24,000 bases of DNA from Shewanella sp. KX20019 (GCF_016757755.1 NZ_CP068437.1:761588-785587); one strand, 5' to 3'. Positions 3,838 to 19,572 are shown, numbered from the stretch's first letter. The notes: generated from the letters alone by a model not told the origin. Numbers and translations are program-made.

Positions 3838-4392
3838 CTAGACAAGTAATGTAACCACACCCAATACGGCGAACAATACTGCGCAGCCGCGATGGATCCA
3901 GTGCATAGGCAGTTTTTCTGCACTAAAGTGGCCGGCGATAACGACCGGCACATTAGCGATTAGCATGCCAAGCGTGGTGCCCATCACAACCATAGCTAAT
4001 GCATCGTATTTGGCTGAGAGTACTACAGTGGCTATCTGGGTTTTATCACCCATCTCGGCAATAAAAAACAGGAAAAAAGTGGCTAAGAAAGGCCCCATGG
4101 CATAAAAGCGGCTCTCCTCTTCATCAACTTTATCAGGAATAAGCACCCACAGTGCAATGGCAAAAAATGATGCAGCGACTAGGTAGCGACCAACTTCTGG
4201 ACTGATAAAACTAATAGCCCATTGACCAAGCCAAGCGGCGGCAAAATGGTTTGCAAGTGTCGACAGAAAAATACCGAGAATAATGGCGGTTTTATTTTTG
4301 AAACGAACCGCTAGAATGAGCGCGAGTAGCTGTGTTTTATCACCGATTTCGGCAATAGCAACAGTAAAGGTTGAGGCGAGAAAAGCTTCCAC
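3838..4392 (-). CDS. UPF0016 / GDT1 / TMEM165-family cation (Mn2+/Ca2+) exporter, MneA-like
   Basis: 184 aa with a GTG start and an AGGAA SD. Two internal repeats each carry the E-x-G-D-K-T motif (AEIGDKTQ and AEMGDKTQ). About 6 hydrophobic helices. Confidence 0.8.
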   Translation of the reverse strand: MEAFLASTFTVAIAEIGDKTQLLALILAVRFKNKTAIILGIFLSTLANHFAAAWLGQWAISFISPEVGRYLVAASFFAIALWVLIPDKVDEEESRFYAMGPFLATFFLFFIAEMGDKTQIATVVLSAKYDALAMVVMGTTLGMLIANVPVVIAGHFSAEKLPMHWIHRGCAVLFAVLGVVTLLV

Positions 4393-4460: not shown

Positions 4461-4600
4461 GTGCTCAGGTCTTGCTGGGTTAACGACATAGTCATTAACT
4501 GTAAGTACCATGGCATTTGGCCAATTATGTTGATACTTACTCAATCGATGCTGATGTGTTGCAAAGATTGATAGCTACTCCCCCGAAGCAGAGCCGAGCA
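4461..4600 (-). promoter_or_regulatory. Probable yybP-ykoY (Mn2+) riboswitch aptamer in the 5' leader of the UPF0016 gene
   Basis: The minus strand reads ...cttcGGGGGAGTAGCtatc...(about 100 nt)...cccaGCAAGACCTGagc. GGGGAGUAGC and GCAAGACCU are the two most conserved blocks of the yybP-ykoY motif as I recall the L. lactis and E. coli examples. Downstream, at about 4415-4453, a GGGGAGG/CCTCCCC hairpin precedes the SD. The genomic context (metal exporter) fits. Confidence 0.6.
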
Positions 4601-6464: not shown

Positions 6465-8621
6465 ATGAAGAAATGGCTTTTGACAGTAGCTATCGCGACC
6501 TCTTTTGGCGCTGTGGCTGACGAAGGTATGTGGCAGCCCTATCAGCTTCCTGCGATGGCAGATGAGCTGAAGGCAAAGGGACTTGAAATTGACGTTAATT
6601 CGATTTCAAAACTTACCGAATATCCAATGAATGCCGTGATTAGCCTTGGTGGTTGTACGGCATCATTTGTATCTCCAAAAGGCCTAGTGGTGACAAACCA
6701 TCACTGCGCTTACGGCTCAATTCAATACAACTCTACGCCAGAAAAGAACCTGTTGCGTGATGGCTTCTTAGCTAAGTCATTTGGCGAGGAGCTGGCTGCA
6801 ACGCCGGGTTCACGTATTTTCGTAACTGAGAGCGTAGTAGATGTAACTGACAAGGTCAAAACAGGCCTTGAAAATGAAATCGGTAATGCGTTTTACAAAG
6901 GCATTGAGCAGCAAGAAAAGAGCTTAGTTGCGGAGTGTGAGCAAGAAGACGGTTACCGTTGTCAGGTTTACAGCTTCCACGGCGGCCTTGAGTATTACCT
7001 CGTTAAGCAGCTTGAAATTCGCGATGTACGTTTAGTGTATAACCCAGCAGCAAGCGTCGGTAAGTACGGCGGCGATGTTGACAACTGGATGTGGCCACGC
7101 CACACAGGCGATTATTCTTTCTACCGTGCTTATGTATCTAAAGACGGTAAGCCAGCAGACTTTAGCAAAGACAATGTGCCATACGAGCCAAAGAGTTTCC
7201 TGAAAGTGTCAGCTAAAGGCGTCAGTGACGGTGATTTTGTGATGGTTGCTGGTTATCCTGGGCGCACCAACCGCTACCGCACCGCTAACGAAGTTGAAAA
7301 CCAATTTGAGTGGTCGTATCCAGAAGGCAAAGTCTTGCGTGAACGTCTAATTGAGATCATCAAAGACACCGCGCCAGAAGGCAGCGATGAGCGCATCAAG
7401 TATGAAAGCTCAATTGCAGGTCTTGCTAATTACGCTAAAAACTTCACTTCGATGATCGAGTTCTATGGTAAATCAACTATGCTCGATGACCGTAAAGGGC
7501 TAGAGCAAGACTTAGCAAACTGGATCAAAGCTGATAAAAAACGCCAAGCTAAATATGGCGAAGTGCTGGCCCAGCTTGATAAGTTAATTGCTAAGGGGCA
7601 GCAAGGACAAGAGCGCGATTTACTGATGAGCTACATGGGTTACAGCACCATGTTAAGCACGGCTGACCGCTTATATCGTTTAGCGAATGAAAAAGCCTTG
7701 CCAGATATGCAGCGTGAGCCAGGTTATCAAGAGCGTGATATGACCCGCTTTACCTCTGGTATGGAGCGTATTGAGCGTCGTTATGCAGCCAGTGTTGATA
7801 AAGCGATGCTAGCGGACTTAATCGGCCGTTACGCAGCACTGCCACAAGATCAGCGCTTACCGGCGTTTGATAAAGCCTTTGGTATTAATAACAACTTTGA
7901 CGCGGCTAAGTTCAATAAGACGCTAGATAAGATGTATGCAAATACTAAGCTATCAGACAAAGAAACACGTTTAGCGTGGATGGAAAAGCCTGTAGCTGAC
8001 TTTAACAAGTCAAAAGATCCATTCATTCAGTACGCAGTAGCGACTTTTGATGAACGTATGAAGCGCGAGAAAGAGCGTAAACAGCTTTCGGGTGACTTAA
8101 TGAAGGTTCGTCCACAATACATGGACGCCATCATCGCTTACAACCGTGAACAAGGTAAGCCTGTTTATGCGGATGCTAACTCAAGCCTACGTGTCACCGT
8201 AGGTCATGTGAAAGGTTACTCACCTGAAGATGGCATGCGCGCTGAACCATTTACCCGTCTTGAAGGTATCTTAGCGAAAGACACAGGTGTTGAGCCATTT
8301 AACGCGCCTAAGAAGCAGCTTGAGCTGATTGCCAACAAGCAGTACGGCGATTACTACGTGAAGCCATTAGACTCTGTACCGGTTAACTTCCTATCGACGT
8401 TAGACACTACAGGTGGTAACTCAGGTTCGCCAACCTTGAATGGCCGCGCTGAGCTAGTGGGCCTGCTATTTGACGGCGTATATGAAAGTATCATTGGTGA
8501 TTGGGGTTACGACCCACAGACTAACCGTTCAATTCAGGTTGATAGCCGTTATATGCTTTGGGTAATGAAGTACTTAGATAATGCAGACAACTTGCTTGAA
8601 GAGATGGAAATTGTGCATTAA
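6465..8621 (+). CDS. S46-family dipeptidyl-peptidase (DPP7/DPP11-like), secreted/periplasmic
   Basis: 718 aa. A signal peptide is followed by the hallmark mature N-terminus ADEGMWQP. It has the catalytic His context VVTNHHC and the Ser context TTGGNSGSP, with a long helical insert between them. Confidence 0.85.
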   Translation: MKKWLLTVAIATSFGAVADEGMWQPYQLPAMADELKAKGLEIDVNSISKLTEYPMNAVISLGGCTASFVSPKGLVVTNHHCAYGSIQYNSTPEKNLLRDGFLAKSFGEELAATPGSRIFVTESVVDVTDKVKTGLENEIGNAFYKGIEQQEKSLVAECEQEDGYRCQVYSFHGGLEYYLVKQLEIRDVRLVYNPAASVGKYGGDVDNWMWPRHTGDYSFYRAYVSKDGKPADFSKDNVPYEPKSFLKVSAKGVSDGDFVMVAGYPGRTNRYRTANEVENQFEWSYPEGKVLRERLIEIIKDTAPEGSDERIKYESSIAGLANYAKNFTSMIEFYGKSTMLDDRKGLEQDLANWIKADKKRQAKYGEVLAQLDKLIAKGQQGQERDLLMSYMGYSTMLSTADRLYRLANEKALPDMQREPGYQERDMTRFTSGMERIERRYAASVDKAMLADLIGRYAALPQDQRLPAFDKAFGINNNFDAAKFNKTLDKMYANTKLSDKETRLAWMEKPVADFNKSKDPFIQYAVATFDERMKREKERKQLSGDLMKVRPQYMDAIIAYNREQGKPVYADANSSLRVTVGHVKGYSPEDGMRAEPFTRLEGILAKDTGVEPFNAPKKQLELIANKQYGDYYVKPLDSVPVNFLSTLDTTGGNSGSPTLNGRAELVGLLFDGVYESIIGDWGYDPQTNRSIQVDSRYMLWVMKYLDNADNLLEEMEIVH

Positions 8622-9121: not shown

Positions 9122-9715
9122 CTACGCAACTAACTGAGTCCTGCTAGCCAAAACTGCATCCACGTCAATCCAAAGAGCGACTGAGCGTTCAACTCCAATT
9201 TGCATCGACTTGCCTTTCCCCATTCGTCTTGATGGTATCTCTAGTAACCTAAGAATTCTTTCACATGCAAGGGTAGTGACTAAGACGTAATGTTTGATGT
9301 TATTTTCAATAGCGAAATCAAAGAATGAATTAACTAAGTCCGCTGTGGATGAGGTCACTAGGCTCGTGCCTGCTTGTCCATCACCTTTTTGAATTGCAAA
9401 GCGGCTAATTTCCCACACTTCTTTATTTTGAGGTGCTAGCTCTCCTTGCAGTAGTTCTGGGAATACATCTTTCAACATATATTTTCCTTGAGTAGGGAGA
9501 GCTCTCCAGCAGCCTATGACTTCATCATTGTCGTTGGTCATCGCGATATGAGAAACTTCAAGCTGATCAAAACTGTCTCGTTCAAGGCCATTTGTAGTGC
9601 TTACTTCCCAATCAAGTCTTTGTTTAAAAGTTTGTTCACGTAATTTAAAAATTCTGTTTAACACTGGTTGATTAGTCTTTATATCGCTGTTTTTTAGGAA
9701 TGTAATTTTTTGCAT
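9122..9715 (-). CDS. luxI: LuxI-family acyl-homoserine-lactone synthase
   Basis: The 245-aa ORF in the track is over-extended. ATG 9715 (MQKITFL...) follows a GGTGGA SD and gives 197 aa. LuxI signatures are present: RxxxF..LxW, ERDSFD, GCWRALPT and VWEISRFA. Confidence 0.85.
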   Translation of the reverse strand: MQKITFLKNSDIKTNQPVLNRIFKLREQTFKQRLDWEVSTTNGLERDSFDQLEVSHIAMTNDNDEVIGCWRALPTQGKYMLKDVFPELLQGELAPQNKEVWEISRFAIQKGDGQAGTSLVTSSTADLVNSFFDFAIENNIKHYVLVTTLACERILRLLEIPSRRMGKGKSMQIGVERSVALWIDVDAVLASRTQLVA

Positions 9716-9790: not shown

Positions 9791-9810
9791 CTGTGTCAGA
9801 TCTGACAGGT
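9791..9810. promoter_or_regulatory. lux/tra-box-like operator in the divergent luxI / orf306 intergenic region
   Basis: CTGTGTCAGATCTGACAGGT contains a perfect 14-bp palindrome TGTCAGATCTGACA (9794-9807). It matches 13/20 positions of the V. fischeri lux box ACCTGTAGGATCGTACAGGT and shares the CAGATCTG core with the tra box. The centre lies about 85 nt from the luxI ATG and about 73 nt from the orf306 ATG. Confidence 0.5.
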
Positions 9811-9873: not shown

Positions 9874-10794
9874 ATGAGTGCTCAATTACATAGTTTTTCC
9901 TCCCAAACGCAGGTGGATAAAGAACTGTTGTTCATATTTGATAAGGCACATTACCTATCTAAGAGAGCTGGGTGGGCATGGTCTTTGATTCGAAATGGTC
10001 GACGCGTTAATTCTGGTAGCGGTATGTTCGGATATCCAGCAAGTAACTTACATATTCCGGTTGATGAAACTTGCAACCAAGGAGCGTTATATCTGTCATC
10101 GCCACCTCATGCTGGATTTATTACATGGGACGAACTACTGCCAAATTTAAAAGCTGCAAATATCCTTGAGGTAAATATTCCAAGCGTGCTGGAGGGAAGC
10201 ATCTCACTTGATGACAGTCGGAGGCAACAGGCTGAAAATGGGATTGAAATTTTTTGCCATGAAGTAAAAGGAATAGGTAGTCAAAGTTACTATGGGGCTT
10301 ATTGCTTAAAAATGAAAAAACGGCCCTGGATTACTTGTGTTACGGCTACTGGCATAGGAGGAGGGAATGTTGATTTATCGAATTTTTATGATGAGTTTGG
10401 ATTCAAACAAAGGGTAATTGGCAAAATAAGAGGTAGTCATGCACTCATTATTGATCCAAGAATTAATTGCGAAGTCTTTAAGAAAATCAGGAACGTAGCA
10501 GGCTGTCGTCTACAGACTCATGAATATGAAAGTATTGAGGGACTAAAAGCATTCCTTAGGGGGTTAGAACTAATGGATCTGTCTACAGTCGTTGCGATAG
10601 TCCATCACGATCTCTACCAGACAATGCTTAGTTTGGGCTTGATTGACGAGTTATCAATAAGTTACGAGTTGATGAGTTTGTGCTCAAACGTACAGAGCAC
10701 ATTTACTATACTAGATTATAAAGATTGGCAAATAACAGAATGTAGCCCTTTAAGTTCGGGTATAAATGTTGAATTTATTAATAAGCCATTTTAA
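9874..10794 (+). CDS. Hypothetical 306-aa protein between luxI and luxR (possible degenerate RibD-like fold, speculative)
   Basis: Long uninterrupted ORF divergent from luxI, with no obvious SD. Segments in RibD order include GALYLSSPPHAG, ENGIEIF, KKRPWITCVTATGIGG and GLIDELSISY, but the HAE and PCxxC Zn motifs are absent. Confidence 0.55.
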   Translation: MSAQLHSFSSQTQVDKELLFIFDKAHYLSKRAGWAWSLIRNGRRVNSGSGMFGYPASNLHIPVDETCNQGALYLSSPPHAGFITWDELLPNLKAANILEVNIPSVLEGSISLDDSRRQQAENGIEIFCHEVKGIGSQSYYGAYCLKMKKRPWITCVTATGIGGGNVDLSNFYDEFGFKQRVIGKIRGSHALIIDPRINCEVFKKIRNVAGCRLQTHEYESIEGLKAFLRGLELMDLSTVVAIVHHDLYQTMLSLGLIDELSISYELMSLCSNVQSTFTILDYKDWQITECSPLSSGINVEFINKPF

Positions 10795-11109: not shown

Positions 11110-11868
11110 ATGGAGCAAGAGTACATGGATAGTAATGTCTTTTCTCAAATTCTACAGAATTTGGAGTTTTTAAAGTCGGCTGAACAACTGAAGACAGCTT
11201 GCGAAGAGTTTTGTTTACTGCTTGGTATACCCTACTATTTAATGGGGATCGTATCCCCTGATTCACTGAATTCCCCTTCTATGAATGTCCTGAGTAATTA
11301 CCCTGAAGAATGGCTTGATAGCTATTTCAAACAGAATAAGCAGAAGGATGATCCCGTCGTAGCTTATATGATGAATAAGCATGCACCGGTTGAGTGGAAC
11401 CAATTACTTCAGCTTAGCCAGTTTAATAATGCACAGAGTCAGAGTTTCATGTTGGAAGCTAAAGAGTACGGTTTAAAAAATGGTCTTAGCATTCCTATTC
11501 GCTCTTCGTTGGGAAAATTTGCAGTGTTTAGTTTAGCGATAGATGATGATAGTGAGGCGGGAAAACGCAAATTAAATGACATTTTGCCTTTCGCACATAC
11601 ATTCGGAGTGAATTTATTTGAAAGGCAAATAAATATAACCTCAGAAGAATCAATAGCAGCTAAATTGACGAATAGGGAGACTGAATGCCTATTTTGGGCA
11701 TGTGAAGGGAAAACCGCCTGGGAGATCTCTCAAATAGTCGATATTACCGAGCGCACGGTTCTATTTCACTTAAATAATTCAACTAAAAAGTTGGGAGCCA
11801 CAAATCGGCAGCATGCTGTTTCTTTGGCTATGCGCTATGGAATAGTGACTCCTAACTTGAGAACGTAA
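11110..11868 (+). CDS. luxR: LuxR-family AHL-responsive transcriptional regulator
   Basis: 252 aa. The N-terminal autoinducer-binding domain has conserved W..Y...D-P (WLDSYF..KDDPVV), W (VEW) and G (GLKNGLSIP). The C-terminal GerE/LuxR HTH is LTNRETECLFWACEGKTAWEISQIVDITERTVLFHLNNSTKKLGATNRQHAV. ATG 11125 (GGAG upstream) is an alternative start. Confidence 0.9.
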   Translation: MEQEYMDSNVFSQILQNLEFLKSAEQLKTACEEFCLLLGIPYYLMGIVSPDSLNSPSMNVLSNYPEEWLDSYFKQNKQKDDPVVAYMMNKHAPVEWNQLLQLSQFNNAQSQSFMLEAKEYGLKNGLSIPIRSSLGKFAVFSLAIDDDSEAGKRKLNDILPFAHTFGVNLFERQINITSEESIAAKLTNRETECLFWACEGKTAWEISQIVDITERTVLFHLNNSTKKLGATNRQHAVSLAMRYGIVTPNLRT

Positions 11869-13633: not shown

Positions 13634-16297
13634 TTAGCCTAAGTCATGTAACCAACGAGGCTGTCCATCAACGAGCCTCTGCAGAAACAACCCTATACCT
13701 GAAGAACCAAACGCTAAATCAGTGGATAAGCGTTGTGCAAATTTACCCGGATAGATATGGCCATTAGGTTTTTCGATTGAAAATTGCATTATGCTATCCG
13801 CGATATGACGAGCTGACTGTAGGTAAATTGGATCCTTAGTTGCTCGATTAATATCCAGTAATAACTCCCCTAATCCAGCTAGTCCATTAAAGCTGCCTTG
13901 CTCTGCGGAATATCGAGAAAAATTATTGGTCGCCAAAGGTTGTAATAAGTTGAGATAGAAAATGGATTGGGTAACTTCATAGAATCGAACTATCACAGCG
14001 CCAATCCCAGCTGCGCCAAACTCCCAGTAAGGAAGGCGTTGGTCGCTATCGGATGTTTCTCCCCAGCTCAGAGGGTTTTTAGCTTCTAAGCCAATATTGA
14101 TATCATAGCGTATGGCATCTTCAGCTTGCTCTAAGGTGTCTTTGGAGCCGTTGAACTTATAAAGCTGTAACAGAAATAGTGCTATGCCTGAGCTACCATG
14201 TATTAGACCTATATGCTCTTTACTGTCATCTTCTTGCGGGTATCGTGTGCCACTGGAGCTGGCAATACTCATACTCTCAAGTCGACATGCGATATCAGCA
14301 GCATATTCCAAATAACTGTCATCATTAGTTTTCTTGTAAACTGAAAGTAACATGAACCCAATACCCGCTAAGCCATATCCAAAACTGCAGCATTGATTCA
14401 ATAGCGGGGATTGAATACTCTTTCGGGCTAAATACTCGGCTTTCTCTAGTCGCCCAATCTCAATTTCTGCCAATGCCATACCCGCAGAACCAACTAATAT
14501 CCCCGGTGCGACATTGGTTTGCATTGCATTATCTATTTTATCTATAAGGTGATTAGGTACCGTTCTTCCTGCGCGGGTGAGCATCACTGCTGGTCCGTAG
14601 TAGCCGTATGCAATGGCATTTTTATGTAAGTCGAAGGCTCTGTAATCTAGAGGAACGAAGTTTTTACTCGTCTTACGTTCAACTCCTGTTTCAATAAAGC
14701 GGGCAATCTCGCTAACTTCATGCTGGATCTGTTTGTCGTCGAATAGGCTCGGAGTCGAGGGTAATATCTTGTATGGTTGCGCATGCTTTTCAGCTATTTG
14801 TGGTTGGAACTGCTGCGCTAAGGTGAAAACTAGTTTTTTCGCTTCTAGATGCTGACTATTGGCAAGAAGTTTAATGACCTCGCTAATACGAGTATCTAAT
14901 TTACAATCTTGTTCTAGCTTAGTTAATAGTTTCCAGCAAATGGGTTTATGGAGATCGAAAAAATTTTGAATGGGTAATATCATGCTATAAAGCACCATTG
15001 AAAGAGCATACCAGTCACCCGCAAACGTATTGCCGTTTTTAAGCAGTAAGTCATAATCACTAAAGCCTGGCGTTGTCAGCACCGGAATATTTTCTCTGTC
15101 TATCACAACATTCTCATGATCCAATTTGTAAGAGCCATCAAAGTCTATGAAGCGAATAGTGTGTCTTTCTCCATCAACCATAATATTATTTGGAGAAATA
15201 TCACCTAATACTATGTTTGCATCATGTGCGACTTCAATTGCTTCAATACAACTATTAGCGATCCAAGCGAACACACCTTTGAATCGCTCAGCAGATGCAC
15301 TCGTTCCTGTAAATGGCACTAGAGTACATTCATTACTGGCTCTAAATTGCCTTAATGTGATCCCCGTTACAAACTCTTCAACAAGGAATGAGTGCTCCCA
15401 CTCAAGAAACCAATCGATCGCTTTTGGAAAGTACTGACAATCTTGCAGTGCCTGCAAAGTGTCGTATTCGTTTTGTAGTACTCTTTCGGCATAGACGCTG
15501 GCCTTAGTCATAGAGCGAAAGCTGATATTAGGGCGAGCTTCCTTTATAACCACTTCTGATTTTGTCTTTAGATCTAGGGCTTTATATACACCTCCACTAT
15601 TTGAAAATGCCAATGCCTCGAGTATTTGATAGCGTTGTTTTAGGGGCGTGTTGGTTTCATTTATTGGTAGTGGTTCGGGAAACGGTTCAGCAATCCAATC
15701 TGGTAATTGATAGAAGGGTGTTCGAAGATCCTCCGTGAGCAGTCCGGTGTTATTTTTGATGCAAGCGACTGATTTTCCGCTTACTTGAAGCTTGGGTAAA
15801 AGTAAAAATCCACCATAGCGATAGTGAACTACTTGACTATCTTTGTATCGTTTATCTGACAGTATATAGGGGCCACTGTTGGCTTCTAGAGCGACGTGAA
15901 GTGCGTCTATTAGCGTACGAAAAATGGCATTATTCTGTGGATATATTGTAATCAGCTTTCCTGCACTGCTACGCGAACATGACTTTGAATTCATATTCCC
16001 AGCAATATCTTTGCGACAAATAACTTTAAATGCAGTTCCATACTTTATGCAACAAGCGACTGTTTTTTCTATAACATCAATAATTTCATTCTGTACTGAT
16101 GAAATGTGTATTTTAAAGCCTTGCAAGGGTAAATTTAGAGGGCCATTTGATGCTGACAGCCAAATGCTCTTACGTGTAATAATCCAATAATCAGGCAATA
16201 ATTTTTTGATAGTATCTTCATAGAGTTCGTCGGCAGATAACTCCGTAGGGTGAGTAAAGAAATATCGATCTCCATACGTATAAAGATTATTGCTCAT
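13634..16297 (-). CDS. lanKC: Class III lanthipeptide synthetase (LanKC-type: phospho-Ser/Thr lyase + Ser/Thr kinase + LanC-like cyclase without Zn ligands)
   Basis: 887 aa. The lyase region has GFKIHISS and GKLITIYP...YRYGGF. The kinase has GGVYKA...VVIKEARP, the catalytic loop GDISPNNIMV and IRFIDFDGS. The C-terminus has six GxxG-type LanC repeats including GLIHGSSG. The WCxG and CHG Zn-ligand positions read WEFGAAG and LAFGSSG. Confidence 0.85.
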   Translation of the reverse strand: MSNNLYTYGDRYFFTHPTELSADELYEDTIKKLLPDYWIITRKSIWLSASNGPLNLPLQGFKIHISSVQNEIIDVIEKTVACCIKYGTAFKVICRKDIAGNMNSKSCSRSSAGKLITIYPQNNAIFRTLIDALHVALEANSGPYILSDKRYKDSQVVHYRYGGFLLLPKLQVSGKSVACIKNNTGLLTEDLRTPFYQLPDWIAEPFPEPLPINETNTPLKQRYQILEALAFSNSGGVYKALDLKTKSEVVIKEARPNISFRSMTKASVYAERVLQNEYDTLQALQDCQYFPKAIDWFLEWEHSFLVEEFVTGITLRQFRASNECTLVPFTGTSASAERFKGVFAWIANSCIEAIEVAHDANIVLGDISPNNIMVDGERHTIRFIDFDGSYKLDHENVVIDRENIPVLTTPGFSDYDLLLKNGNTFAGDWYALSMVLYSMILPIQNFFDLHKPICWKLLTKLEQDCKLDTRISEVIKLLANSQHLEAKKLVFTLAQQFQPQIAEKHAQPYKILPSTPSLFDDKQIQHEVSEIARFIETGVERKTSKNFVPLDYRAFDLHKNAIAYGYYGPAVMLTRAGRTVPNHLIDKIDNAMQTNVAPGILVGSAGMALAEIEIGRLEKAEYLARKSIQSPLLNQCCSFGYGLAGIGFMLLSVYKKTNDDSYLEYAADIACRLESMSIASSSGTRYPQEDDSKEHIGLIHGSSGIALFLLQLYKFNGSKDTLEQAEDAIRYDINIGLEAKNPLSWGETSDSDQRLPYWEFGAAGIGAVIVRFYEVTQSIFYLNLLQPLATNNFSRYSAEQGSFNGLAGLGELLLDINRATKDPIYLQSARHIADSIMQFSIEKPNGHIYPGKFAQRLSTDLAFGSSGIGLFLQRLVDGQPRWLHDLG

Positions 16298-16339: not shown

Positions 16340-16367
16340 ACGCCGCAGTAAAGGTAATTACTGCGGC
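16340..16367 (-). terminator. Putative attenuator / partial terminator between the precursor genes and lanKC
   Basis: cgccgcagtaa (16340-16350) pairs with ttactgcggcg (16357-16367) around a 6-nt loop. On the minus strand it is followed by tatttaattt. It sits between the lanA4 stop (16421) and the lanKC ATG (16297). Confidence 0.45.
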
Positions 16368-16420
16368 GACTAAACAAATATTAGTGGAAAATTGTTTACT
16401 AATAATTGTTCACGGTTTTT

Positions 16421-16519
16421 CTAGTTTTGTTCACCGCAATGATTACTGATTGTGCTCCATTCCATTAACTCAGCATCGGAAGAACTAGTAAGCGATTGCA
16501 ATTTAAGTATGTTATTCAT
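16421..16519 (-). CDS. lanA4: Class III lanthipeptide precursor A4: MNNILKLQSLTSSSDAELMEWSTISNHCGEQN (32 aa)
   Basis: Hand-translated; not in the ORF track. AAGGAA SD. The leader ILKLQSL is ILELQ-like and the core is S-T-I-S-N-H-C. The C-terminal tail differs from the other copies. Confidence 0.75.
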   Translation of the reverse strand: MNNILKLQSLTSSSDAELMEWSTISNHCGEQN

Positions 16520-16555
16520 TAAATCAATTCCTTTTGTTGGGTATCTAGTTTTGTG

Positions 16556-16660
16556 TTAGTCTTGTCCGCGGTCGCCGCAATGGTTACTGATCGTACTCCA
16601 TTCCATTAGTTCAGCATCAGAAGAGGTGGCAAGTGTTTGTAGATTTAGTATGTTATTCAT
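16556..16660 (-). CDS. lanA3: Class III lanthipeptide precursor A3: MNNILNLQTLATSSDAELMEWSTISNHCGDRGQD (34 aa)
   Basis: Hand-translated; not in the ORF track. AAGGAA SD 8 nt upstream. Leader ILNLQTL and core STISNHC. Confidence 0.8.
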   Translation of the reverse strand: MNNILNLQTLATSSDAELMEWSTISNHCGDRGQD

Positions 16661-16696
16661 TAATTCAATTCCTTTTATTTGGTATCTAGTTTTGTA

Positions 16697-16801
16697 TTAG
16701 TCTTGTCCGCGGTCGCCGCAATGGTTACTGATCGTGCTCCATTCCATTAATTCAGCATCAGAAGAGGCAGCAAGTGTTTGTAGATTTAGTATGTTATTCA
16801 T
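16697..16801 (-). CDS. lanA2: Class III lanthipeptide precursor A2: MNNILNLQTLAASSDAELMEWSTISNHCGDRGQD (34 aa)
   Basis: Hand-translated; not in the ORF track. AAGGAA SD. Leader ILNLQTL and core STISNHC. Confidence 0.8.
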   Translation of the reverse strand: MNNILNLQTLAASSDAELMEWSTISNHCGDRGQD

Positions 16802-16837
16802 TATTTTAATTCCTTTTGTTTGGTATCTAGTTTTGTA

Positions 16838-16942
16838 TTAGTCTTGTCCGCGGTCGCCGCAATGGTTACTGATCGTGCTCCATTCCATTAGTTCAGTATC
16901 AGCAGAGGCAGCAAGTGTTTGTAGGTTTAGTATATTGTTCAT
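16838..16942 (-). CDS. lanA1: Class III lanthipeptide precursor A1: MNNILNLQTLAASADTELMEWSTISNHCGDRGQD (34 aa; an in-frame ATG at 16945 would add one Met)
   Basis: Hand-translated; not in the ORF track. AAGGAA SD. Leader ILNLQTL and core STISNHC. It is the first gene of the operon. Confidence 0.8.
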   Translation of the reverse strand: MNNILNLQTLAASADTELMEWSTISNHCGDRGQD

Positions 16943-17013
16943 CATTTAAATTCCTTTTGTTTTGATTGTCTGTTTGACAGAGTAAAGACTATTTGAAATT
17001 TAGTTTTTAGAAA

Positions 17014-17033
17014 AGCTGTAACAATTAACAGGG
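17014..17033 (-). promoter_or_regulatory. Candidate lux-box-like dyad upstream of the precursor array
   Basis: The minus strand reads CCCTGTTAATTGTTACAGCT, a CTG-N10-CAG dyad with CCTGT/ACAG arms. It matches 12/20 positions of the V. fischeri lux box. A TAGTCT -10-like hexamer at 16991-16986 would place the dyad centre near -44. Confidence 0.3.
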
Positions 17034-17285: not shown

Positions 17286-18328
17286 TTAGTTTTCAACCTC
17301 CGCACTCAAGCCTGCAATTAAAACGCTTTCAAGCATCACTGGATTCATTAAACACCGCTTCTGTTTACCGACAATACTCAGTTTGGTTGGCTCTGAACGC
17401 AACATATTCAACGCCATATGACGTAAACAAGCTAAGTTTTCTGCACCGTTATCTTTATAAATCTGGCAAGCATCCTCATCCATACTGACATCGAGCACCC
17501 AATGCATTGACTCGATACCCCAATGTTCACGTACTGCAGACGCGGCCTGCTTAGCGCTCAATTCCTTTGAACTGATGTAGTAACGATACTCAAGTCCAAC
17601 GGACTTACCCTGTTTGTATCGAAAGCTTTCTATCATGATGATACTTTTTAAGTTCTTCCACCGCGTAAAGTTGCCATCAAGCTCTTGCGCATTTAACACG
17701 GTGCATTGTCGAGACTCAATTCGACCATGTCCTTTTTCAAAGTCTATCTTACCCAATACGGCTAAGCGTGTTGGTTTAAAGGATTTTTCAATGGCTTGTC
17801 GCAACTTGCCTTGATTGCTTTTAACCGCGAGTAAATAGTCACCATCTTGAGCTACAATCGTCCTAGCTATCTTTGTCTGGCAAGCCATAGCATCAATTGT
17901 GACTACAGCTCCGCGTAAATCGAGAATCTTAAGCAGTTCTGGAATAGCAGTGATTTCATTGCCTTTCTGAGCCGTTTTAACCTGACCAAGCACGAGTTTG
18001 TTTGATGAAGTGTAGGCACTTATCATGTGAATGGTACTTGACCTGTCTTCGCGGTTATACGAACCACGAAGTGTTTTCCCATCAATAGCGATCACTTGAC
18101 CTTCTGTCAGAGCATGAATCGATTGCATCCAGGCTAAAAAGCATTGTTGGAATTGCTCTGGTTCAATCCTCGAGAGAATACGAGCAATAGTGTCATCAGC
18201 TGGAATATCGTTTATAAACATGCCATTGCTTTTAAACCATTGATGGTGGTCTAAGATATACTCTCTAATATCAAACCAACCTTTAGCGCCCGCAATAACG
18301 GCGCAAAGGGAACCGAATAAGACCTCAA
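17286..18328 (-). pseudogene. ISAs1-family (H-repeat/YhhI-like) DDE transposase gene, 5'-truncated by an IS3-family insertion
   Basis: The track ORF starts at ATG 18221, but the frame stays open upstream (...FEVLFGSLCAVIAGAKGWFDIREYILDHHQWFKSNG-MFINDIPADDTIARI...) right up to the IS3 IR. It is collinear with E. coli YhhI as recalled (AIDGKTLRGS, ITAIPELL, TIDAMACQ, REHWGIES). About 20-25 N-terminal codons are missing. Confidence 0.75.
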
Positions 18329-19569
18329 AGAGTGGTAAGCCCCTAGAACAGTAGACACTTCATAGAGTTATACTTAACCAAAAATATGAGGTGTTACATG
18401 CGCGGAAAACGATATCCCGATGAGTTCAAAATTGAAGCCGTTAAACAGGTCACTGAACGTGGCTATAAAATAGCAGATGTTGCTGACAGATTAGGGGTTA
18501 CTTCCAAAAGTTTGCACAACTGGATTAACAAGTTTGATAAGCCAGAAAAGCAGCACATCACCATTGATAATCAGCAAGACGAAATACGTAAGCTCAAGGC
18601 GGAGCTTCGCCGTGTAACCGAAGAGCGAAACATCCTAAAGGAGGCCGCCGTGTACTTTGCAAGCGAGTCAAAGAAAAGTACACGTTCATAAAGTCTAGGC
18701 TCAAGCAGTATCCTGTGAAAATCTTATGCGAAATACTTGGAGTCCATCGTAGTGGTTTCTATGCCTGGCTGAAGGAACCTCAGAGTCGAAGAGCGACTGA
18801 AGACAAACGCTTGCTGGGTAAGATTAAACAGTTTTGGCTGGAAAGTGGTTGCGTTTATGGCTATCGAAATATCACCTTGGACCTTAAAGATGATGGTGAA
18901 GTTGTTGGTAAAAACCGTGTATATCGAATCATGAAACAGGCTGAAATTAAAGCTGTACGAGGTTATAAACGCAATCCAACCTTTGGCGGAGGCGATGTTA
19001 ACCATACGGCACCTAATACATTAAATCGAGGCTTTGATGTCGTCAAACCCAATATGATTTGGGTGACCGATTTCACTTATATTCGTACCCATGAAGGCTG
19101 GCTGTATCTCACCGTTGTGATAGACCTTTTTTCAAGACAAGTCGTAGGATGGACGATGAAAAGTACACCGAAGGCAGAGTTAGTTATAGATGCTCTATTG
19201 ATGGCTATATGGAGACGCTCACCTACAGAAAAGGTGCTAATACATTCCGATCAAGGAGTGCAATATACCTGCTCAGATTGGCGTAGTTTTCTAAAAGAGC
19301 ACAACCTTGAAGCCAGTATGAGCCGAAGAGGAAACTGCCATGATAATGCTGTCGCTGAGAGTTTCTTCTCGCTGCTGAAAAAAGACAGGGTTAAGCGAAA
19401 AGTCTATAAAACCAGAGATGAAGCACGCTCAGAAGTATTTAACTATATCGAATATTTCTATAATCCAGTGCGGCATCATGGTAGTAATAATGGACTGTCT
19501 CCGATCAAGTTCGAGAAGCAGTATTATGAAAACCTAGAAAGGTCTAGAAAACTGGGGGCTTACCACTCA
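18329..19569 (+). mobile_element. Intact IS3-family insertion sequence (about 1.24 kb)
   Basis: Imperfect terminal IRs: left (a)gagtggtaagcccctagaacagtagac, and the reverse complement of the right end tgagtggtaagcccccagttttctagac. Between them lie orfA and orfB in the 0/-1 frame arrangement. Boundaries are good to about 1-2 nt, and no clear target duplication was seen. Confidence 0.85.
18386..18691 (+). CDS. IS3-family transposase OrfA (HTH + leucine-zipper region)
   Basis: 101 aa. Motifs are RYPDEFKIEAVKQV, the HTH IADVADRLGVTSKSLHNWI, and the C-terminal ILKEAAVYFASES typical of IS3 OrfA. Confidence 0.9.
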   Translation: MRCYMRGKRYPDEFKIEAVKQVTERGYKIADVADRLGVTSKSLHNWINKFDKPEKQHITIDNQQDEIRKLKAELRRVTEERNILKEAAVYFASESKKSTRS

Positions 19570-19572
19570 TAA
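18715..19572 (+). CDS. IS3-family transposase OrfB (DDE catalytic domain; normally made as an OrfAB fusion by -1 frameshift)
   Basis: It is in the -1 frame relative to orfA, and the frame is open upstream well into orfA. A-rich TCAAAGAAAAG (18668-18678) is a candidate A-AAG-type slippery region. The DDE residues are in WVTDFTYI, IHSDQGVQY and NAVAESFF. The stop codon lies just outside the right IR. Confidence 0.9.
   Translation: MKILCEILGVHRSGFYAWLKEPQSRRATEDKRLLGKIKQFWLESGCVYGYRNITLDLKDDGEVVGKNRVYRIMKQAEIKAVRGYKRNPTFGGGDVNHTAPNTLNRGFDVVKPNMIWVTDFTYIRTHEGWLYLTVVIDLFSRQVVGWTMKSTPKAELVIDALLMAIWRRSPTEKVLIHSDQGVQYTCSDWRSFLKEHNLEASMSRRGNCHDNAVAESFFSLLKKDRVKRKVYKTRDEARSEVFNYIEYFYNPVRHHGSNNGLSPIKFEKQYYENLERSRKLGAYHS

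Follow-up and report, generated by a model that had tools for sequence, protein, structure and literature searches.

Four short genes lying in tandem in a 24-kb stretch of Shewanella sp. KX20019 DNA (referred to as the window, meaning the whole stretch analysed) are very probably functional class III lanthipeptide precursor genes, whose products would be processed by the adjacent lanthionine synthetase LanKC into a peptide with one lanthionine (Lan) or labionin (Lab) motif. Together with their LanKC neighbour, the four genes most likely form an operon with the order lanA (four copies), lanKC and ABC exporter gene. At the level of sequence, the original prediction of a tandem class III array adjoining a LanKC, each precursor having an LxLQ-type leader and a single Ser/Ser/Cys motif, is supported, as both the precursor model NF038154 and the synthetase model NF038151 were passed. 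The genes are already publicly annotated and are of a known kind. What is added here is the group to which they belong, a Gram-negative class III group with no characterised member, whose core is minimal and extremely conserved, which is probably controlled by quorum sensing, and which has an amplified gene dosage and a conserved accessory protein, orf306.

Translation of the window gave four ORFs of 32-34 codons each on the minus strand between 16421 and 16942, and re-translation bore out the peptide sequences that had been given for them (Table 1). Their start codons (16942, 16801, 16660 and 16519) follow one another in steps of exactly 141 nt, as had been predicted, and Tandem Repeats Finder described the array as a repeat of period 141 with 3.8 copies, 91% matches and 0 indels. 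The predicted AAGGAA SD site was located 8 nt 5' of each ATG. In all 24 kb, the combined pattern AAGGAA-N8-ATGAA has exactly four occurrences, one for each ORF; shuffled sequence gives 0.02 on average, and the observed number is far above chance. An alternative in-frame ATG of lanA1 is present at 16945 and is the RefSeq start, giving a 35-aa product that begins MMNN. The second ATG, which was the one originally chosen, is favoured because it has the same 8-nt AAGGAA spacing as the other copies, and with this start all four lanA products are in register. The genes had been described as unannotated, which is true only of the first ORF track: GenBank and RefSeq hold all four peptides as 'class III lanthipeptide [Shewanella sp. 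KX20019]' (QQX80932-35 / WP_202287874-77). In 2020, 55% of class III precursors had not yet been called (PMC7268733). The NCBI annotation pipeline now applies a class III precursor model.

Table 1. Features of the lanA cluster and its surroundings, in window coordinates
Feature	Position	Strand	Remarks
luxI-type acyl-homoserine-lactone (AHL) synthase gene	9122-9715	-	Probable ATG at 9715, 197 aa; mechanical ORF extends to 9859
Second lux-type palindrome	9793-9810	n/a	GTGTCAGATCTGACAGGT; divergent luxI/orf306 promoter region
orf306, conserved 306-aa protein	9874-10794	+	Cluster-associated
LuxR-family regulator gene	11110-11868	+	Autoinducer-binding and GerE HTH domain matches
ABC exporter gene, 530 aa	12028-13620	-	Transmembrane and ATPase domains, no C39 peptidase; 13 nt 3' of lanKC
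lanKC, class III lanthionine synthetase, 887 aa	13634-16297	-	Lyase, kinase and Zn-less cyclase domains
GC-rich hairpin with U-rich tail	16341-16368	-	Terminator scan: 11 pairs, 7 GC, tail TATTTAATTT
lanA4	16421-16519	-	MNNILKLQSLTSSSDAELMEWSTISNHCGEQN; class III precursor
lanA3	16556-16660	-	MNNILNLQTLATSSDAELMEWSTISNHCGDRGQD
lanA2	16697-16801	-	MNNILNLQTLAASSDAELMEWSTISNHCGDRGQD
lanA1	16838-16942	-	MNNILNLQTLAASADTELMEWSTISNHCGDRGQD; class III precursor
-10-like hexamer AATAGT, putative	16988-16993	-	Centre 33 nt from box centre
lux-box-type palindrome, putative LuxR site	17014-17033	-	CCCTGTTAATTGTTACAGCT; 5' of lanA1
ISAs1-family transposase gene, N-terminally short	17286-18221	-	Borders the cluster; context only, outside the pathway

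Against the NCBIfam model NF038154 (lanthi_III_a, 'class III lanthipeptide'; cut-off 22), lanA1 scored 38.6 bits and lanA4 32.8 bits. The leader motif is found at residues 4-8 and reads ILNLQ in A1-A3 and ILKLQ in A4, in both cases fitting (I/L)(L/F)xLQ, and the pattern across the whole family is [IV]L.LQ. A stricter form of the motif, with (D/E/N) at its third position, had been quoted, and ILNLQTL had been said to fit it at every position; A4 does not fit, as ILKLQSL places a Lys outside the (D/E/N) set. In recognition by LabKC, the hydrophobic leader positions are those that matter (PMC8341899), and all of these are kept in A1-A4. The core, S22-T-I-S25-N-H-C28, is an Sx2Sx2C motif with exactly two residues between Ser22 and Ser25, and its spacing is invariant in the close LanKC group. 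This spacing had been placed at or below the short end of the quoted range, but Sx2Sx2C lies inside the published class III motif, Sx2Sx2-5C (PMC8341899). Nor is a single compact core unusual, as had been thought, since lipolanthines are known to have a single labionin-type motif (PMC8341899) and single-motif or Sx2Sx2C cores recur beside many LanKCs. Many Sx2Sx2C rings were seen among 70 more distant loci from many phyla, whose LanKCs are uncharacterised, and single-motif cores were found at the distant loci L023, L028, L039, L048, L051 and L088. Several distant loci have a core of the S-x-x-S-N-x-C flavour, for example in Luteimonas (...SSVSNHCGGHSDQLEKF) and Elusimicrobia (...GSWISNSCGVE).

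The lanKC gene starts 123 nt 3' of lanA4 on the same strand. Its product is 100% identical to a protein of Shewanella sp. KX20019. Its product contains the Pfam domains RamC_N, Pkinase and LANC_like, and scored 640 bits against the equivalog NF038151 (cut-off 575), whereas class IV LanL gave only 424 bits (cut-off 650). It aligned over its full length with the solved LanKC structures 8sao, 8sap and 8sam at 299 bits or less, and is only distantly related to the solved enzymes. Relative to a canonical stand-alone LanC, which has WCWG and CHG, the zinc-ligand positions are changed from C to E, C to F and H to N, and E, F and N are likewise found there in 10 of 10 aligned LanKC relatives. Absence of the Cys/Cys/His zinc ligands is what divides class III from class IV (PMC8341899). 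The active-kinase residues K252, E277, D366, N371 and D385 are invariant in 15 enzymes of the clade. A His at the LanC 'GxxHG' position was also considered and was dropped as a meaningful feature, as H, Y, Q or S is found there among the relatives. The ABC gene is located 3' of lanKC in all relatives examined.

Relatives of LanKC form a tight group at 44-60% identity, after which identity falls to about 36% and below. The tight group is marine and gammaproteobacterial, being made up of enzymes from Shewanella, Ferrimonas, Microbulbifer, Pseudoalteromonas, Arsukibacterium and Rheinheimera. A single-sequence LanKC scan of the reference genomes gave no match, and a clade-alignment scan of them gave matches. 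At every group locus with sequence upstream of lanKC, the tandem precursors are followed by lanKC and then by the ABC gene, a layout seen in five to six other loci with an uncut array, from Shewanella, Ferrimonas, Microbulbifer, Pseudoalteromonas and Arsukibacterium. The number of lanA copies per locus ranges from 3 to 8, with approximately 17 in P. luteoviolacea; several draft contigs break inside the lanA array, and at L008 the contig end leaves one copy. The core of the group reads W-S-x-x-(S/T)-x-x-C throughout, being WSTISNHC in Shewanella, Microbulbifer and some Pseudoalteromonas, WSTFSVNC in Ferrimonas, WSILSGVC or WSVFTSVC in Arsukibacterium, and WSTLSGVC in P. luteoviolacea and Rheinheimera. 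The C-terminal tail is freely variable, and some Shewanella copies stop directly after the Cys. Because the tail is variable or absent, the conserved functional unit is the ring motif together with the Trp before it. When 1.84 billion representative proteins were searched with a profile built from the four peptides, at least 17 clusters matched at E < 0.001, a lower bound since small ORFs are often uncalled. No characterised member from Shewanella, Pseudoalteromonas or relatives was found in the literature searched; for Pseudoalteromonas isolates, the only entries found there were BAGEL annotations of 'lanthipeptide class III, undefined' (PMC10456417). According to a 2020 genome-mining survey, most LanKC genes are from Actinobacteria and Firmicutes, whereas at that time Actinobacteria were the sole source of isolated class III peptides.

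The putative regulatory sequences around the cluster suggest that the lanA operon is probably under quorum-sensing control. The sequence CTGT-N8-ACAG occurs once in the 24-kb window (0.29 sites expected), 72-87 nt 5' of the lanA1 ATG and inside the palindrome CCCTGTTAATTGTTACAGCT. One such site somewhere in 24 kb was present in 25% of shuffles, and the lanA box in the window matches the CTGT-N8-ACAG core only; because a single match is common in shuffles, the weight of the box lies in its position and its conservation across genera. Equivalent boxes are located approximately 90-135 nt 5' of the first lanA in Shewanella, Ferrimonas, Microbulbifer, Arsukibacterium and Rheinheimera. The palindromes upstream of lanA in Shewanella relatives are ACCTGTCATTAATTACAGGT and ACCTGTAGGATCTAACGGTT, the second of which differs at 3 of 20 positions from the V. 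fischeri lux box. The boxes of the group can be aligned without a shift, and each is followed at a constant distance by a -10-like hexamer, such that AATAGT in the window aligns with TATAAT in Microbulbifer, TATAGT in Arsukibacterium and TAGGAT in Ferrimonas. In lux-type promoters the box is centred at -42.5, and the 33-nt spacing between the centres of the lanA box and the -10-like hexamer matches this arrangement. A promoter consensus scan of the window did not pick out the lanA promoter. A LuxR homologue adjoins the cluster at L001, L002 and L004, and CTGT-N8-ACAG was also found 5' of the orf306 homologues orf311 (L004) and orf308 (L008) and 5' of macA (L005). Across loci L001-L010, 10 of 12 stringent sites were in the promoter regions of cluster genes. 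In the literature searched, there was no paper tying class III lanthipeptides to LuxR control.

The intergenic region between lanA4 and lanKC folds with an energy of -31.2 kcal/mol (z = -4.7). A strong stem-loop was found at the equivalent place in 7 of 7 relatives folded, although the sequences are unrelated. This hairpin would act either as a partial terminator or as an mRNA-stabilising stem-loop, and read-through hairpins of such kind are known in other lantibiotic operons. With four lanA copies and the hairpin, transcripts for the precursor would greatly outnumber those for the enzyme.

We infer the chemical steps, expression, quorum-sensing control and export route as follows. At high cell density, the LuxR/LuxI AHL system would most likely activate lanA through the lux-type box, and the four near-identical copies together with the hairpin would provide a large excess of precursor over enzyme. 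LanKC would most likely bind the N-terminal I-L-x-L-Q leader helix. Phosphorylation of Ser22, Ser25 and probably Thr23 by the kinase domain would follow, and elimination of the phosphates by the lyase domain would leave Dha and Dhb. The Zn-independent cyclase would then add Cys28 to Dha25, giving lanthionine, or labionin if the enolate attacks Dha22. The expected product is one compact W-S-T-I-S-N-H-C unit, either bicyclic or monocyclic, carrying a short tail of variable sequence, and it would be exported by the ABC protein. The window encodes no leader peptidase, so trimming of the leader presumably depends on a peptidase from another part of the genome. The determinants of lanthionine versus labionin formation are not known according to a review, and mixed Lan/Lab outcomes are seen with class III enzymes (PMC8341899). 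The most likely overall outcome is a small secreted peptide with one labionin or lanthionine motif, made at high cell density. From the many gene copies and the identical core across genera, our guess would be an abundant secreted peptide over a narrow-spectrum antibiotic.

The same pathway could include a further crosslink, from His27 onto Dhb23 or a Dha, to give a tricyclic and possibly metal-binding peptide. The WSTISNHC core has three dehydratable residues, one Cys and one His and is invariant across three genera; LanKC-type enzymes can make histidinobutyrine (PMC10206099), and a sister family with S-x-x-S-x-x-H, in which the His takes the exact place of the Cys and no Cys is present, is found beside a LanKC-like enzyme, as with the multi-core peptide P0140 and the enzyme at L092 (8328-10865). 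However, Thr2 and His6 of the motif vary in the wider group, among enzymes of 45% identity (WSILSGVC, WSVFTSVC, WSTLSGVC and WSTFSVNC), and a noursin-type His crosslink was for this reason rejected as a family-wide feature. Noursin and its enzyme LanKC(Hbt) resemble the Shewanella system in that the substrate of a class III synthetase has Ser, Thr and His and only one Cys in its core, but they differ in motif arrangement and ring sizes. The noursin-type core S-x3-S-T-x2-H-x3-C is not matched by the arrangement in the window, as in noursin the Thr follows the central Ser, the His is inside the large B ring and the Lab is 3-7-15, and noursin-type enzymes are a separate cluster with members only in Streptomyces and Saccharothrix. 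A link between Dhb2 and His6, spanning two 4-residue rings, would also probably be very strained. We therefore regard the crosslinked product as very unlikely, and the peptide with one lanthionine or labionin motif as the preferred reading. A broader and more tentative proposal is that WSTISNHC is a mass-produced, AHL-controlled minimal Lan/Lab peptide acting among marine Gammaproteobacteria as a second-tier signal or an extracellular good that they share, perhaps with an extra His-derived crosslink; taken as a whole, we hold this to be unlikely. Candidate roles for the WSTISNHC unit include surfactant or biofilm factor, metal binder and interspecies cue.

The orf306 protein had no match in Pfam or NCBIfam, and RibD_C and other weak Pfam matches were set aside as not meaningful (E > 0.1). 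Only five proteins were matched by it in 5.8 billion sequences, one of these being the strain's own. Homologues of orf306 are found in clusters L008 (45% identity) and L004 (34%), located 5' of macA and macB. The AF2 model of the protein was poor (pLDDT 55). A MacAB-type pump is encoded beside the cluster at L001, L004, L005, L006 and L008, and none was found in the 24-kb window, where no cluster-linked protease or leader peptidase was found either. In two relatives an M16 peptidase adjoins the lanA array; removal of class III leaders by peptidases of the M16 family is known (PMC10885120). An S46 dipeptidyl-peptidase of the window (6465-8621) was considered as a leader trimmer and rejected, as none is present near the related loci and it scored only 434 bits with the Dpp7 model, whose cut-off is 1200. 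The GC content is 35-43% in the cluster and 40-49% in most of the flanks, and base composition is not a clear sign of a foreign cluster.

Given the lack of a cluster-linked protease and of the MacAB pump, and the IS elements adjoining the array, the locus in KX20019 could be incompletely functional. Taken further, the lanA array could be a decaying or silent remnant, with IS insertions having cut off the pump and protease genes: ISAs1 and IS3 elements lie directly 5' of the array, the window has no counterpart of the macAB genes located after the orf306 homologue in L004 and L008, and the cluster has no linked protease. In the window, however, the four lanA ORFs, lanKC and the ABC gene are all intact, the SD sites and their spacing are perfectly kept, and differences between copies within the core are only synonymous. 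A promoter box, a -10-like element and a hairpin are present as well, and class III clusters are often without a linked protease (PMC7268733, PMC10885120). We give the remnant interpretation a slim chance and prefer that of a functional precursor array.

Selection on the core was seen both within the window and between loci. Among the four window copies, the codons for EWSTISNHC show 0 nonsynonymous and at most 3 synonymous differences per pair, whereas in the leader codons synonymous and nonsynonymous changes are both present. Between loci, 29 distinct DNA versions of (E/D)WSTISNHC were compared from 8 loci in Shewanella, Microbulbifer and Pseudoalteromonas, and 1,320 of 1,320 codon differences in WSTISNHC were synonymous, including AGY to TCN switches in both directions at the second Ser. 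The WSTISNHC core is under extreme purifying selection. That the repeat is non-coding, a tandem regulatory or RNA repeat with small ORFs arising by chance in AT-rich tandem-repeat DNA where ORFs are very short, is effectively refuted because the between-locus differences are all synonymous, so that the peptide is kept across genera while the DNA has diverged; in addition the curated precursor HMM was passed, an Rfam search of the lanA region matched no family, the SD sites are kept at fixed spacing and the ORFs always lie directly 5' of a LanKC gene.

Labyrinthopeptins (LabA1/A2, LabKC), SapB/RamS (RamC), curvopeptin and erythreapeptin share with the Shewanella system an (I/L)-L-x-L-Q leader, a spacer of approximately 13 residues, a Ser-x-x-Ser-x(2-5)-Cys core, a trifunctional Zn-less LanKC and an ABC exporter, and they likewise often contain two or more precursor genes and lack a linked protease (PMC8341899). 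Unlike these actinobacterial systems, the host is a Gram-negative marine gammaproteobacterium, and its cluster combines four near-identical tandem genes with luxR/luxI and lux-type boxes. The Shewanella core has one motif where two are usual in actinobacterial class III peptides, and its second gap of two residues is at the short end, three being commoner in the actinobacterial cores. Lipolanthines of the microvionin type also have a single labionin-type motif (PMC8341899), but their clusters contain a decarboxylase and fatty-acid/polyketide machinery for avionin and the N-terminal lipid, none of which is encoded in the window. Tandem gene dosage is shared with a Bacillus cereus cluster of 13 identical class III precursors; that cluster is from a Firmicute and has a different core, and the available part of its description mentions no quorum-sensing link (PMC7268733).

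The 8-residue, one-motif unit is a very small natural substrate, and would for that reason be a simple system in which to approach the question of lanthionine versus labionin. If the broader proposal for WSTISNHC holds, the product would be, to our knowledge, the first class III lanthipeptide to be characterised from a Gram-negative host. With V. fischeri lux-type promoters, the putative lanA promoter shares the 20-bp palindrome with its CTGT-N8-ACAG core, approximately 33 nt 5' of the -10 centre, and both systems have adjoining luxR and luxI genes. The second box, in the Shewanella luxI region, would permit positive feedback. Unlike in V. fischeri, the predicted target is a lanthipeptide operon, and an AHL-controlled WSTISNHC peptide, if real, would directly link AHL signalling to lanthipeptide output. 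Given the lux-type boxes and the luxR and luxI genes, the cluster might be switched on by AHL or by LuxR expression.

Loci of other genomes encode a sister family of precursor peptides without any Cys, comprising P0140 (locus L092) and P0131, P0137 and P0146 (L091 and L094). Each peptide contains two to three internal modules of the pattern '...LQ...(E/D)WST(I/V)SNVH', so that these modules read S-x-x-S-x-x-H, whereas the window peptides read S-x-x-S-x-x-C, with His at the exact position of the Cys. The LanKC-like enzyme of L092 scored 482 bits against the LanKC model, under its cut-off of 575, gave a faint LanC-like match only, and shared 24% identity with the window LanKC. His could serve as the ring-forming nucleophile in this family, or else its peptides may undergo dehydration alone. 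According to PMC7268733, the class III mining pipeline of 2020 threw out ORFs lacking Cys, and the sister family may therefore have been missed.

Features of the window and of related loci.
Feature	Location	Strand	Remark
Manganese (yybP-ykoY) riboswitch	window 4477-4588	-	Rfam match
GDT1-family cation transporter gene	window 3838-4392	-	downstream of riboswitch
306-aa protein gene	window 9874-10794	+	no family assigned
LanKC gene	window 13634-16297	-	
Short inverted repeat	window 16961-16985	-	just 3' of inferred lanA operon transcription start
ISAs1-family transposase ORF, then IS3-type orfA/orfB pair on opposite strand	window 17286-19572		
Peptide P0140	L092 8001-8240		
LanKC-like enzyme, 845 aa	L092 8328-10865		directly downstream of P0140 gene
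Precursor array	L007 3201-5854 (Pseudoalteromonas luteoviolacea)		upstream of lanKC
Odd 38-aa ORF, MNTSSDIKTAEEISDGLSFDKTANLSSHFCETRVNRAI	L005 4722-4838 (Pseudoalteromonas sp. R3)		

The precursor array of P. luteoviolacea consists of approximately 17 near-identical 41-aa genes in tandem (core WSTLSGVC, period 158 nt) and one additional divergent copy. It is adjoined by a divergently oriented M16 peptidase gene, as is also the case in Arsukibacterium (L006). The odd ORF of Pseudoalteromonas sp. R3, which has no LxLQ leader, lies after the lux-type boxes (putative LuxR-binding palindromes) and before the first canonical lanA.

In the window LanKC, the His of GLIHGSSG at approximately residue 700 aligned with the canonical LanC catalytic-acid His (GFAHGGAG). 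The equivalent residue is Asp in the solved LanKC 8sao, and H, Y, Q or S in relatives. The inverted repeat near the inferred 5' end of the lanA operon reads TCTGTCAAACAGA in the window; its counterparts in L001 and L004 are GTCATCAAGTGATGAC and GTCATTAAGAGATGAC, respectively. It could form an mRNA 5'-terminal stem-loop or act as a second operator.

The 306-aa protein matched nothing in Pfam or NCBIfam, and just five sequences among 5.8 billion, one of the five being KX20019's own; its AF2 model was poor (pLDDT 55). The L008 and L004 lanthipeptide clusters each encode a homologue, with 45% and 34% identity, respectively, and in both cases its gene lies after a lux-type box and before macA and macB. 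The protein may have an accessory function, or a role in immunity or tailoring.

At the cluster border, the ISAs1-family ORF lacks its N-terminal part, with matches beginning at profile positions 36/314 and 59/88; followed as it is by the IS3-type pair on the opposite strand, this suggests nested IS insertions. The riboswitch match, upstream of the GDT1-family gene, scored 45.5 bits, barely over the Rfam gathering score of 45.
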